46,541 nucleotides of DNA, from assembly GCA_035569855.1 (NCBI GenBank), contig DATMMH010000229.1, forward strand, positions 1 to 46,541. Reading direction: 5' to 3'. This document shows positions 43,196 to 46,541 of this stretch, one piece after another. The first letter of the stretch is position 1. Every line of letters starts with the position of its first letter. The position numbers and the translations under genes were made by a program. The DNA is from Candidatus Dormiibacterota bacterium (GTDB lineage: Bacteria > Methylomirabilota > Methylomirabilia > Rokubacteriales > CSP1-6). The notes beneath the pieces were generated by a model that was given only the letters and a program-made list of their open reading frames with translations, did not search any database and was not told where the DNA came from.

Positions 43196-44539
43196 ATGGA
43201 CCGCGCCGCGCTGCCGCGGCTGCGCGCCTGGCTCGCGCGCGCCGACATCGTCGCCCTCGATCCCGAGCGCATCCCGGCGCTACGCGCCGCGCTCGACGAC
43301 GCCGATCCGCCAGTCACCGCCGGGCGCGGGGGCGCGCTGACCGGGTTCGCCCCGGAGGCCGGACGGCGCCGGCTCGTGCAGTTCGATCGCCGCGGGCGTC
43401 TCGTCGCCGCGTGCCGGTGGGGCGCCGAGGGCGCGCTCGCGTGGGCCAAGTGCCTCCTCCCGGACGGGCGCTGGCTCGGCATCGAGCCGGGCGCGGACAC
43501 GCATCCGGCCTGGGGCCGCTCGGACCGGGTGTGGCTCCTCGAGGCCGGCGTGCCCTGGCGGCCGCGCGAGCTGCTGACGAGCTTCCAGGCGCTCGACTAC
43601 ACGCGCCCCGACTTCATCCCGCCGCTGCTCGAGCCGCGGCGTCTGCCTCCGGGCGGCGGCACCGCGCTGCTCAACCTCGTCGCGGGCCTCATGAAGGATC
43701 AGGGCGTCGCCGCCGTGCGCTATCGGGGCCCCTATCCGACCGAGCAGCTCTTCACCGCCCTGCTCGAGTGCTTCCGCTACGACGCCCGCGAGGCGCTGCC
43801 GCTCGAGCGCTTCCTGGCCGACGGAGCGCTCGACTGGCACCCGGCGCCGTTCGAGACCCACCACGTGACCCCCGGCGTATCGGTCCAGCTCCGGAACGAG
43901 GTCGAGAAGGTGGTGCTGGACGGCGTGCCGTTCTATCGCGCGGAGTGGCAGGAGATCCGGCGGCGCGAGCCGCGGGTGATCCGCCAGGACGGCGATCGGG
44001 TGATCTGCTCGTTGTGGGCGCTCGGCGGGCCGATCGAGGACCGGCTGGTGCTGGATCGCGCCGGCGAGGTGCTGGAGACGCCGGCCCCCGAGTTGGACCG
44101 CGTCGCGCCCGCGCCGCTGCCCCCGGTCTGGCAGGGCGCGCTCGCCGAGCTGATCGCGCGCGAGAGCGCGCCCGCGCTCGCCCCCGCCATCGCCGCGGTG
44201 ACCGCCGCTCTCGATCTCGAGTGGGGCCCGGTGCCGGCGGATCTCCTGCACGTCCACGGCCAGCGCGTCCGCCTGAGCCGGCGCCTGCGCGAGGCCGGCC
44301 TCGCAGCGCGGGCGGGCGCCGTGTCCCCGCAGGAGCGCGCCGAGCAGGCGCTGCGCTTCATCCTGGAGGTGGCCCGTCTCCTCGGGCCCGAGGTGCGCGA
44401 CCGCGCCCAGGCCCATCTCGAATCGCTGAGCGACGCCGAGCAGCGCCGGATCCTCGAGGAGGCCCCGCCCGAGCCACCCGAGACGCTCGGCGAGTCGGTC
44501 GGTCGGCTGATCAGCCTCGTGGTTCGCGGCGGCGGGTAG
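43196..44539 (+). CDS. hypothetical protein (447 aa), no recognised domain
   Basis: I chose the ATG at 43196 within the 531-aa track ORF. Amino-acid usage looks coding (W, Y, F, C spread throughout; not just Arg/Pro/Gly). It is divergent from the lipoprotein-amidase pair. Confidence 0.55.
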   Translation: MDRAALPRLRAWLARADIVALDPERIPALRAALDDADPPVTAGRGGALTGFAPEAGRRRLVQFDRRGRLVAACRWGAEGALAWAKCLLPDGRWLGIEPGADTHPAWGRSDRVWLLEAGVPWRPRELLTSFQALDYTRPDFIPPLLEPRRLPPGGGTALLNLVAGLMKDQGVAAVRYRGPYPTEQLFTALLECFRYDAREALPLERFLADGALDWHPAPFETHHVTPGVSVQLRNEVEKVVLDGVPFYRAEWQEIRRREPRVIRQDGDRVICSLWALGGPIEDRLVLDRAGEVLETPAPELDRVAPAPLPPVWQGALAELIARESAPALAPAIAAVTAALDLEWGPVPADLLHVHGQRVRLSRRLREAGLAARAGAVSPQERAEQALRFILEVARLLGPEVRDRAQAHLESLSDAEQRRILEEAPPEPPETLGESVGRLISLVVRGGG

Positions 44540-44552
44540 CCCGCCGCGAGGG

Positions 44553-45806
44553 CTACGACTTGCCGGCGTGGGCGATCAGCCAGACGTTGAGCAGCACGAA
44601 CCCGGCGACGGAGGCGAGCGACAGCGTGAAGTAGGCGAGGCAGATCGTCTCCTGGCGCGTCAACCAGGTGGCCGAGCGCAGGCGCGACCACAGCGTCTCG
44701 CGCACGAAGCGCGCCGAGTCGTGATTGAGCGTCGGCACCCCCACCAGCTCCACGAGGATGTGATAGCCGTCCATCTCGAGGAACCAGAACGGGTAGAGGC
44801 TGATCAGGAACGACTGCAGCTGCAGGAGCGCGGAGGCGGCCACGAAGCCCTGGATGAGTCCGGGTGAGAGGTGGACCGCGATCCAGAAGCAGAAGCAGCC
44901 GAGGAAGAGATGGAAGAGCGGGCCGGCGACCGAGTTGACGATGCGTGCGCGGCGGGTGGCCATGAAGATGTCGGTCACGTCGGCGTAGAAGGTAGGGATG
45001 AAGCCGTGCAGGATCGTGAAGCCGAACTCCCGCACCCGCCGGCGATAGTGGACGCAGGCCAGCGCGTGGATGATCTGGTGGTTGATCACGGTGAGCCAGA
45101 ACACGATCTTCACGAGCAGGATCGCCAGGAGCGGGTGGCTCGCCAGGCCGTGGGTGACGTCGCTCAGGTCGTGCCAGATCGCCACCCCGCTGCGGGTGCC
45201 CAGCACCACCATGATGCCCAGCGCCACGAGGGCCCACGGCGAGAAGAGCAGGAAGCCGCCGTAGCGGTACATGCGCTCGAAGACCTGATGCGAGCGCCGG
45301 CTCGTGACGGTGAGCCGCTCCAGGGCGTGGAGCGTGCCCTCCATCGCGCGCGCGGCCGGGTTGCGACGGTTGCGGGCCAGCACCGCGCGCAGCCGCGACA
45401 CCGGCCGCATCGTGAGCAGATCGGCGCGCAGGAGCTTGACGATCAGGGTCGGGATGATCTCGAAGTCGAACGAGCCGTAGTGGAGCAGGTACGAGGTCGC
45501 GATCTCCTGGAGCGAGGCCTGCCCGTCCATCTGCTCCCAGAGGAACTTCTCGGTCTCGGTGATCTGGATGATCTGCTCGGTGCGGCGGTTCTTGAGCGCG
45601 TAGGTGACCACGCCCAGCGGGGCGTAGGGCAGGCGCGCCATCTCCCAGTCGGCGTCGGGGATGCGCTGCGGGCGGCTGTGCAGGTAGGCGACCGCGCTGG
45701 GGATCTCGCGCGTCTCGAAGCCGTCACCGTCCGGCTGGCGGACCAGCAGCTCGATTCGCGTGCGCTTCGGTCTGCTCTCCGCGGCCTTGTCGCCGGCCTC
45801 GCTCAC
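44553..45806 (-). CDS. PqqD-like (RRE-type) domain fused to an M50-like membrane metalloprotease homolog with HQxxH in place of HExxH
   Basis: Residues ~80-135 (EKFLWEQMDGQASLQEIATSYLLHYG..IIPTLIVKLLRADLL) fit the PqqD pattern. The TM core has NHQIIHALACVHYRRRVREFG..PTFYADVTD and FLEMDGYHILVEL, which resembles the peptide zinc metalloprotease branch of M50 (HELGHALACKH..., DGYYIL). Confidence 0.7.
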   Translation of the reverse strand: MSEAGDKAAESRPKRTRIELLVRQPDGDGFETREIPSAVAYLHSRPQRIPDADWEMARLPYAPLGVVTYALKNRRTEQIIQITETEKFLWEQMDGQASLQEIATSYLLHYGSFDFEIIPTLIVKLLRADLLTMRPVSRLRAVLARNRRNPAARAMEGTLHALERLTVTSRRSHQVFERMYRYGGFLLFSPWALVALGIMVVLGTRSGVAIWHDLSDVTHGLASHPLLAILLVKIVFWLTVINHQIIHALACVHYRRRVREFGFTILHGFIPTFYADVTDIFMATRRARIVNSVAGPLFHLFLGCFCFWIAVHLSPGLIQGFVAASALLQLQSFLISLYPFWFLEMDGYHILVELVGVPTLNHDSARFVRETLWSRLRSATWLTRQETICLAYFTLSLASVAGFVLLNVWLIAHAGKS

Positions 45807-45824
45807 GATCGAGCCCCGGGGGCG

Positions 45825-46325
45825 CTACTTGTGCTCGATGTCGAGACCCGTGGCCTCCAGCCCCCAGCGGGTGACCTCGGCGACCAGGTCGCTGGAGTCG
45901 CGCAGACGCTTGAAGGCCACCTGGGCCATCTGCTGGAAGAACTTGGCCGCGGCGAGCGGGCTGCTCGCGGTGAAGCGGCTCAGGCTGTCGCGGTCGAGGC
46001 TGAAGAGCACCGTGTCGATCTCGGCCTGGCAGGTGGCGGACCGCCGTCGCTCGTCGCCGAAGAGGCTCATCTCGCCGAACACCTCGCCGGGGGCGATGCG
46101 CGAGAGCACCTGCTCCACCCGGCCGGTGACCGGCTTGGAGACGACGATGCTGCCGTCCTTGATGAGGAACAGCTCCTCGCCCATGTCACCCGCCCGGAAG
46201 AGCACGTCGCCCTTCTTCAGCCGTCGCTCCCTGAAGCTCGGCCACAGGGCGAGCAGCACGGGTTCCTCCAGATCCTTAAACAGGACGACGCGACGCAGGA
46301 ACCCGATCTCGGGGAGGTTGGCCAC
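45825..46325 (-). CDS. stand-alone cyclic nucleotide-binding domain protein (no DNA-binding domain)
   Basis: 166 aa containing LFKDLEEPVL, GDVLFRAGD and FGEMSLFGDERRRSATCQA, a canonical cNMP-binding fold pattern. GTG start at 46325. Confidence 0.85.
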   Translation of the reverse strand: MANLPEIGFLRRVVLFKDLEEPVLLALWPSFRERRLKKGDVLFRAGDMGEELFLIKDGSIVVSKPVTGRVEQVLSRIAPGEVFGEMSLFGDERRRSATCQAEIDTVLFSLDRDSLSRFTASSPLAAAKFFQQMAQVAFKRLRDSSDLVAEVTRWGLEATGLDIEHK

Positions 46326-46354
46326 TCAGCGGGATCCGGCGGGGCGCGTGGTCA

Positions 46355-46540
46355 TCAGGTCGCCCAGCGCTTGAGCATGACGTTTTGCAACGCGCGGGCC
46401 CGATCTCGATCCGAGACGTTGGCGGTGCTCCCGAGCGCCTGCATGATGACGGCGCGCTCGTCGGCGGTGAGCTCGAAGCCGGCCAGTACCTGGGCGGGGT
46501 CGCGCACGAGGTCGACAAGGAACTCCTTGTCGATCATCAC
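46355..46540 (-). CDS. small protein with LigA/NHLP-clan-like motif, possibly cut by the window edge
   Basis: (M)MIDKEFLVDLVRDPAQVLAGFELTADERAVIMQAL resembles the LigA-subunit/NHLP-clan helical motif (DP..vL..y.Lt.eEr.al). No in-frame stop is visible upstream before the window ends, so the N-terminus is unproven. Confidence 0.4.
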   Translation of the reverse strand: MMIDKEFLVDLVRDPAQVLAGFELTADERAVIMQALGSTANVSDRDRARALQNVMLKRWAT

Positions 46541-46541
46541 C

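Follow-up and report, generated by a model that had tools for sequence, protein, structure and literature searches.

Three genes at the end of a Rokubacterial contig

The window analyzed here is the complete contig DATMMH010000229.1 (C229; 46,541 bp), one of the 514 contigs of a 4.8-Mb metagenome-assembled genome (MAG) from the Rokubacteria (phylum Methylomirabilota), and our subject is a group of three co-directional open reading frames (ORFs) that occupy the minus strand at its right end (44553-46540). Read from upstream to downstream, these encode a small protein of the NHLP/LigA clan, a stand-alone cyclic nucleoside monophosphate (cNMP)-binding protein, and a 417-amino-acid (aa) membrane protein in which a recognition element for peptides that are synthesized ribosomally and modified post-translationally (RiPPs), the RiPP recognition element (RRE), is predicted to precede a site-2-protease (S2P) core of the M50 type. 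The original prediction, made from the letters of this DNA by a model, had described three closely spaced co-directional genes on the minus strand with gaps of 29 and 18 nt, and our coordinates and spacers agree with it. The features that matter for the analysis are the following.

46355-46541, minus strand: 3' part of the small NHLP/LigA-clan gene, residues 13-73 of 73 plus the stop codon (ORF 46355-46540, 61 aa); assigned by NF038399 and a profile match to 6lk7
46326-46354, minus strand: spacer of 29 nt that separates the small gene from the cNMP gene
45825-46325, minus strand: stand-alone cyclic-nucleotide-binding protein, 166 aa (PF00027), encoded upstream of the M50-like gene in all Rokubacterial loci
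46032-46079, minus strand: phosphate-binding cassette of the cNMP protein, F83-T98, FGEMSLFGDERRRSAT, with FGE and Arg-Ser/Thr-Ala conserved among orthologues
45840-45869, minus strand: RWGLEATGLD, the near-invariant C-terminal tail of the cNMP protein and a candidate docking motif, from orthologue conservation
45807-45824, minus strand: spacer of 18 nt that separates the cNMP gene from the M50-like gene
44553-45806, minus strand: 417-aa membrane protein with a beta-rich N-terminal segment, an RRE (PqqD-like) and an S2P (M50) core, from NCBIfam, AlphaFold2 (AF2) and Foldseek
45402-45647, minus strand: RRE/PqqD-like winged-helix domain of the 417-aa protein, at about residues 54-135 (three strands, three helices), from AF2 and Foldseek
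45066-45080, minus strand: H243-Q244-I-I-H247, an HExxH motif in which Gln (CAG at 45075-45077) takes the place of the general-base Glu, from orthologue alignments
44763-44777, minus strand: E344-M-D346-G-Y348, counterpart of the S2P LDG motif, with D346 as the candidate third zinc ligand, from alignments of 15 and 81 sequences

The motifs that had been quoted for these genes are all found in the predicted proteins: the 417-aa protein carries NHQIIHALACVHY...VREFG and EMDGYHIL, and the small ORF carries DPAQVLAGFELTADER. The small gene and its family had also been recognized correctly, but the proposed length of ~60 aa was not that of the protein, as the ORF is incomplete in the window. Its orthologues are 71-74 aa long and begin with a conserved M/V-xGKxIQDLVGx, so that the window copy lacks 12 codons and the GTG at 46540 looks like a start only because the contig stops there. 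Orthologues of this length also exclude the possibility, raised with the original prediction, that the small ORF is the C-terminus of a larger unrelated protein. A promoter and terminator scan of 44300-46541 returned no sites, a type of scan that is uninformative in a 70% GC genome.

The same MAG holds a second, non-identical partial copy at the end of another contig (C118:12357-12782; locus L090:3358-3783), which we located through 20-mer overlap. In this copy the small gene is full length (73 aa) and 84% identical to that in the window, while the cNMP gene is present only as its first 68 codons before the contig ends, with 88% identity over those 68 residues. Either a paralogue or a co-binned strain variant could account for the C118 copy; the contamination of the MAG is 5%.

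The three genes are conserved together

A scan of one genome per species recovered 164 relatives, and the locus statistics below come from the best 80. These 80 all belong to the Rokubacteria/Methylomirabilota or lie on very similar contigs that carry other labels. Among the latter, loci labelled Nitrosotalea, Verrucomicrobiia, Deferrimicrobiaceae, Limnocylindria or Acidoferrum encode an M50-like protein that is 85-91% identical (L007, L010, L016, L018 and L021) or ~50% identical (L079); these odd taxon labels probably reflect mistakes in binning or labelling and not horizontal transfer.

In 79 of the 80 loci the small gene is followed by the cNMP gene and then by the M50-like gene, and the 80th has its small gene masked by N; the co-occurrence of the three genes across related genomes, which had been put forward as a check, is therefore clear. 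The cNMP gene adjoins the M50-like gene on its upstream side in every Rokubacterial locus, and in 27 loci 4 nt are shared between the two. A gene for the 417-aa protein is present in 150 of the 251 genomes of the phylum Methylomirabilota, including nearly all of those in its own family, and mostly as one copy. Pairwise ratios of nonsynonymous to synonymous substitution (dN/dS) range from 0.11 to 0.32 for the M50-like gene, from 0.11 to 0.29 for the cNMP gene, and from 0.10 to 0.35 for the small gene. We conclude that all three genes are under purifying selection and that their arrangement is not due to chance.

It had been suggested that HlyD, an ABC transporter or modifying enzymes might lie beyond the window edge, where the contig itself ends. 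This expectation failed, since the upstream genes vary among relatives on long contigs and no conserved partner appears there. The downstream genes of these relatives differ as well, and neither on the long contigs nor in the flanks of the 80 loci is an HlyD protein, an ABC exporter or a modifying enzyme conserved beside the triad. We take it that the three genes make up a self-contained, operon-like cassette that is inherited vertically in the Rokubacteria and descends from a RiPP-type system of peptide maturation.

The 417-aa protein has the predicted architecture of an RRE-fused site-2 protease

Pfam matches to the 417-aa protein were sub-threshold (PqqD, E 0.075; Peptidase_M50 PF02163, E 0.093, 12.5 versus 27.2 bits), and PqqD rose above threshold in its relatives. 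The best match was to the NCBIfam model NF041824, daptide_HExxH (E 8.6e-20, residues 73-404, 71.2 bits versus an equivalog cut-off of 300), and the model of the YydH/LiaK epipeptide protease matched as well (E 5.8e-8). A sequence-profile search of the family against the PDB gave nothing, and only fold comparison succeeded. The AF2 model, built with 81 sequences (predicted local distance difference test score, pLDDT, 79; predicted template modelling score, pTM, 0.60), has three strands and then three helices at about residues 54-127, followed by a helical membrane core. In a Foldseek comparison with the PDB, the RRE region matched TbiB1 with its leader peptide (5v1u/5v1v; probability 1.0, template modelling score 0.63-0.65), and further RRE matches included lasso B1 and TglI proteins (6jx3 and 8hi7 among the hits), with probabilities of 0.82-1.0 across the RRE matches. 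The core matched MjS2P, the S2P of M. jannaschii (3b4r_B), with a probability of 0.99 over 205 columns. Thus, the fusion of a PqqD-like segment with an M50 core that had been read from the letters is upheld by fold comparison (1.0 for the RRE and 0.99 for MjS2P), with Pfam matches below threshold, and the modelled architecture is that of an RRE followed by an S2P core, as in the daptide peptidase MpaP.

The catalytic glutamate was present in an ancestor and lost

We found that the active-site motif reads H-Q-x-x-H in 82 of 82 orthologues (48-92% identity), so that the replacement of the general-base Glu by Gln, noted in the original prediction, is both confirmed and fixed. The histidines H243 and H247 as well as D346 do not vary, and conservation in the 417-aa protein is highest in their vicinity; neither the alignment of 15 sequences nor that of 81 shows any change at D346, G347 or Y348. 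Judged by these alignments, the three zinc-ligand positions (H243, H247, D346) are kept and form a candidate metal site. A further acidic residue, E260, is invariant in the Gln subgroup. Gln244 is encoded by CAG in 79 loci and by CAA in one; a change of one base would give Glu, and no reversion was seen.

The motif is HExxH in relatives at ~30-38% identity and HVLVH in a small neighbouring clade. In a quick maximum-likelihood tree the Gln clade is monophyletic (SH-like approximate likelihood ratio test, SH-aLRT, 100), the Val clade is separate (100), and both group with an HExxH clade (98), nested inside the HExxH relatives; the Glu is therefore ancestral and was lost. Val cannot serve as a catalytic base, and the HVLVH clade may represent a second, possibly independent loss of that base. 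We also observed that in this clade (L003:3579-5351, L004:1135-2907) a cNMP gene encoding an RWGLEATG tail lies directly upstream, and that a look upstream in L003 and L004 turned up no small NHLP-like gene, with a glutathione S-transferase-like gene in that place instead.

The small protein is predicted to be a folded member of the NHLP/LigA clan

The model of the Os1348 family, NF038399, matches all 81 of 81 orthologues of the small protein at E <= 1e-3 (best 4.8e-16). Against its cut-off of 40 bits, the full-length copy in the same genome scores 39.8 bits, and the window copy, clipped by the contig end, 27.4 bits. A profile of the small protein also matches the crystal structure of Os1348 (PDB 6lk7, E 8e-6) and, besides this, nitrile hydratase alpha and the LigA-like domain of DesB, all of which fit the LigA/NHLP likeness that had been proposed for it. 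Its AF2 model has five helices (pLDDT 84), with weak but concordant fold matches to DesB/LigA and to the borosin precursor SonA. The LigA-like group in ECOD holds Frankia_peptide (PF14407), Nif11 and ComX (PMC12353581).

Unlike bacteriocin precursors, the small protein shows conservation from end to end, including the 'core' region in its C-terminal third. The C-terminus is strictly conserved as [KR]R[WVL][AS]T; 79 of 79 sequences terminate in Thr, and the window copy ends in ...LKRWAT. The NHLP leader model TIGR03793 reaches E 1e-3 with only one of the 81 sequences, and these sequences have no Gly-Gly-type cleavage motif, their C-terminal third being conserved rather than variable. We conclude that the RRE-S2P protein has as its partner a member of the NHLP/LigA clan that is predicted to be folded and has an invariant Thr at its end.

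We considered that the small protein might be a C-terminally modified peptide precursor, similar to those of daptides or pearlins, with modifying enzymes that are encoded elsewhere in the genome. Daptide precursors do have Thr as their invariant last residue, and it is an RRE-fused site-2 protease that matures them (bioRxiv 10.1101/2023.03.08.531785); the daptide protease model is the best NCBIfam match of the 417-aa protein. That match, however, is one of 71 bits against an equivalog cut-off of 300, the catalytic Glu is missing, and the small protein is a folded 73-aa NHLP-clan domain, not a short peptide with an ELExMEAP leader. Furthermore, the class-defining DapB (NF041823) had no match in this 90%-complete genome, the control genomes giving no positive match either, and around the 80 loci we found no conserved dehydrogenase, oxidative decarboxylase, aminotransferase or methyltransferase. 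We regard a daptide-like or pearlin-like precursor as highly improbable.

A dedicated, predicted cyclic-nucleotide receptor with a conserved tail

The 166-aa protein matches PF00027 at 73.5 bits (gathering cut-off 27.5) and has no output domain, exactly as had been described. It also matches TIGR03896, at 46.1 bits versus a cut-off of 161 (E 4e-12), with one cNMP domain of the 317-position model covered. The FGE...R-S/T-A residues of the phosphate-binding cassette are conserved across orthologues, and the most conserved stretch of the protein is the RWGLEATGLD tail, which recurs in the partner protein of the HVxxH clade (L003) and, as EWGLDAASLD, in the HExxH locus L088. We note that an RW...AT pattern is common to this tail (R-W-G-L-E-A-T, 45840-45869) and to the end of the small protein (K-R-W-A-T, 46358-46372). 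The common pattern could hint at competition for one site; it is absent in the clades whose small protein ends in RRVAT, and so it may be a coincidence.

A tblastn search identified at least 20 homologues of class III adenylate/guanylate cyclases in the 4.8-Mb MAG (for example on C147, C467, C365, C216 and C132), which, taken by homology, indicates a heavy investment in cNMP signalling.

We also considered a defence module of the Pycsar or CBASS type, in which this protein would sense a phage-induced nucleotide and activate a membrane effector. The protein does match the cNMP-binding part of Pycsar effector models (E ~1e-10), and its partner is a membrane protein, but these PADLOC matches cover only the generic cNMP domain and the other two proteins have no PADLOC match. 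Moreover, there is no adjacent cyclase, and the triad is core, syntenic and vertically inherited, not part of a variable island. A role in defence therefore seems most improbable.

Relatives that retain the glutamate resemble RiPP clusters

The loci L005 (1436-5594), L087 (2-2161) and L088 (2633-8692) encode an RRE-S2P protein of 30-38% identity that reads HExxH. These HExxH relatives adjoin a bona fide Frankia_peptide gene (59 bits) and carry a homologous ~300-aa protein with DDxxD and NDxxSxxxD motifs and a weak match to farnesyl diphosphate synthase (E 0.005), a polyprenyl-synthase-like protein that is reminiscent of ComQ acting on ComX. In addition, L088 encodes a 550-aa protein with a weak squalene-cyclase-like match and a nucleotide cyclase of class III, as well as a cNMP protein of 164 aa with the tail motif. 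The putative modifying enzymes of the HExxH loci have no homologue in the genome studied here, in which cyclase homologues are abundant. Taken together, the gene content of these clusters looks like that of an undescribed candidate RiPP class, made up of a peptide of the NHLP clan, an enzyme resembling polyprenyl synthases and an RRE-S2P protease, with control by cNMP.

Other HExxH relatives (P0153, P0163, P0182 and P0234) have cNMP, PqqD and M50 in a single chain, with two or three cNMP domains fused. Given these fusions and the cNMP partner of HExxH relatives, cNMP sensing and this protease family have been connected for a long time. We also observed one to three N-terminal FHA domains before PqqD-M50 in the HExxH family members P0163, P0225 and P0250, alone or together with cNMP domains, an arrangement that suggests phospho-threonine signalling as a possible alternative input to the same protease module.

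By comparison of gene content and motifs, the Rokubacterial cassette appears to have lost the chemistry genes and the general base, and still to possess its leader-binding domain and metal ligands, along with the small protein and the cNMP receptor.

A proposed membrane receptor derived from a leader peptidase

We infer that the machinery of a RiPP leader peptidase has become a non-cleaving, cNMP-controlled membrane receptor for the small protein, and we assign this reading a probability of about 0.5. The membrane protein would no longer cleave, or would do so only very slowly, and would act as a natural substrate trap at the cytoplasmic membrane face. Its RRE would bind the small protein by the helical part that resembles a leader, and the zinc site, devoid of Glu, would hold the conserved C-terminal tail. 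The cNMP receptor would dock via its RWGLEATGLD tail, and would couple capture and release of the small protein to the levels of cyclic AMP (cAMP) or cyclic GMP (cGMP). E-to-Q mutants of zinc proteases are inactive, as with SpoIVFB E44Q, RseP E23Q and thermolysin E143Q. We favor a receptor that does not cleave because of this inactivity and because plant EGY3 and the iRhoms, considered below, offer precedents. The original prediction had likewise proposed a possibly inactive pseudo-protease, within a module for RiPP-like processing or regulated intramembrane proteolysis; a pseudo-protease that may be inactive and has a RiPP ancestry is the best-supported reading.

Several points weigh against a non-cleaving receptor. 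The inactivity conferred by Gln244 is argued by analogy to E-to-Q mutants of other zinc proteases. Invariant zinc ligands and a conserved active-site region would be equally expected of a working enzyme, and another acidic residue, for instance the invariant E260, could act as the base.

The same points lead to the main rival explanation, in which a still-working intramembrane peptidase, either slow or catalysed in an alternative way, processes the small protein, the whole being a minimal cNMP-gated unit for the maturation of a RiPP or pheromone. Such an enzyme might release a C-terminal peptide or trim the C-terminus, like the M50 carboxypeptidases TglG and TmoG. The zinc ligands and the entire catalytic core are invariant, as is E260 in the subgroup; the tail of the small protein is strictly conserved as [KR]R[WVL][AS]T; the relatives of the 417-aa protein are RiPP leader peptidases; and M50 enzymes that recognize a free C-terminus are known (PMC10885120). 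On the other hand, no exporter or modifying enzyme is conserved nearby, the putative 'core' of the small protein is conserved and not variable, and the near-universal, single-copy, vertical distribution is unlike that of patchy natural-product clusters. A working enzyme is also hard to reconcile with Val at the same position in the neighbouring clade. Finally, to our knowledge the E-to-Q change abolishes activity in every zinc protease in which it has been tested. We therefore consider a working peptidase unlikely, if still the most serious competitor of the non-cleaving receptor.

More broadly, and tentatively, since we would place it somewhat short of even odds, the receptor may be a lineage-wide second-messenger output module, in which a ligand-receptor pair is built around a zinc-holding E-to-Q substrate trap and a receptor for cAMP or cGMP decides between tether and release. 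Such a module, if real, would be of a kind not described in bacteria.

If the preferred reading of a non-cleaving receptor is correct, the 417-aa protein would be a bacterial intramembrane pseudoprotease that keeps both its metal site and its peptide-recognition domain, and natural-product machinery would have been recycled into regulation. The triad is also a concrete candidate for an output pathway of cyclic-nucleotide signalling in the Rokubacteria, an uncultured soil lineage with many nucleotide cyclases, as in the MAG studied here, and few known effectors. For genome miners it would serve as a caution that signatures of an RRE plus a precursor are not always markers of a RiPP product.

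Genes that flank the triad

In the closest relatives the triad is preceded by an FtsX/MacB-type permease and a divergent block of extracytoplasmic function (ECF) sigma factor, Metal_resist and RND genes. Directly upstream of the C118 copy we likewise observed a divergent operon of ECF sigma factor, putative anti-sigma factor and Metal_resist genes, and an RND pump. We rejected the FtsX and the ECF-sigma/RND genes as components of the cassette, since they occur in only 11-14 of the 80 loci and not across the wider family, and FtsX is missing from C118 too.

On the other side, the M50-like gene meets a convergent neighbour.

43196-44539, plus strand: 447-aa protein without a recognizable domain, a frequent syntenic neighbour outside the minimal cassette, from synteny

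This gene lies tail-to-tail with the M50-like gene, 13 nt away, and a small lipoprotein and an amidase then follow. The tail-to-tail placement recurs in 65 of 85 loci (80 of which come from the genome scan), down to ~40% identity, and the amidase is syntenic in 65 loci as well. The 447-aa protein and the amidase are missing from one subclade (the L001/L002 type), in which the triad sits elsewhere. It has no match in Pfam, NCBIfam or PADLOC, and the stretch PPGGGTALLNLVAGL resembles a GNAT-like motif, by eye only.

Comparison with known systems

In the original prediction the combination of genes could not be matched to a described system. The triad can be tied to the RRE-fused site-2-protease leader peptidases of the daptide MpaP type, and single-chain cNMP-PqqD-M50 relatives also exist. 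MpaP is an RRE fused to a site-2 protease and was found through exactly such a fusion (10.1101/2023.03.08.531785). Like MpaP/DapP (NF041824), which is its best HMM match, the 417-aa protein has an RRE and an S2P core and is encoded beside a small precursor-like gene with an invariant terminal Thr. The triad differs in its HQxxH motif, in a score of 71 versus 300 bits, and in having no clustered DapB/C/D/M enzymes; moreover, its small partner is a 73-aa NHLP/LigA-clan protein, and a dedicated cNMP receptor gene is attached.

The epipeptide enzymes EpeP/YydH and the pearlin enzymes TglG/TmoG are also membrane M50 enzymes dedicated to one small peptide, but they are catalytically competent and clustered with radical-SAM enzymes or with peptide aminoacyl-tRNA ligase (PEARL) enzymes, which are LanB-C-like and act on a scaffold peptide; we found neither kind beside the triad. 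Among the gene calls of six annotated contexts we found no Lant_dehydr domain, although no search specific to PEARL enzymes was made. The recognition of a free C-terminus by TglG (PMC10885120) is a possible analogy for the conserved ...AT-COOH tail of the small protein.

For the small protein itself, Os1348 of Pseudomonas sp. Os17 (6lk7) and Frankia_peptide have the helical LigA-like fold that is predicted for it. The gene for Os1348 sits with a GNAT protein, a soluble HExxH protein and a SagB-type dehydrogenase (PMC7726476), whereas the partners in the triad are a cNMP receptor and an RRE-S2P protein instead. TIGR03896 (cyc_nuc_ocin), from the transport cassettes of NHLP/Nif11 bacteriocins, likewise describes a cNMP-domain protein that is tied genomically to NHLP-clan peptides; in contrast to those cassettes, the Rokubacterial triad has no HlyD or peptidase-ABC exporter nearby. 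A search of the open-access literature returned no paper on Franean1_4349, nor any on an NHLP protein with M50 and cNMP.

The HExxH relatives resemble the triad in their RRE-S2P homologue, their Frankia_peptide-type small gene, their cNMP partner or fused cNMP domain, and the tail motif. They differ from it in retaining the catalytic Glu and in carrying the ~300-aa polyprenyl-synthase-like protein, along with the 550-aa protein and the cyclase in L088.

The loss of catalytic residues from a conserved intramembrane protease also has precedents outside bacteria. Plant EGY3, of the S2P family (PMC10978774), and the iRhoms, of the rhomboid family (PMC3149277), have lost catalytic residues, yet they are conserved and bind or stabilize clients. 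EGY3 is without the entire HExxH motif, whereas the triad protein retains its metal ligands and differs at the general base only. Unlike EGY3 and the iRhoms, the pseudoprotease candidate described here is bacterial, carries an RRE, and is paired with a cNMP receptor.

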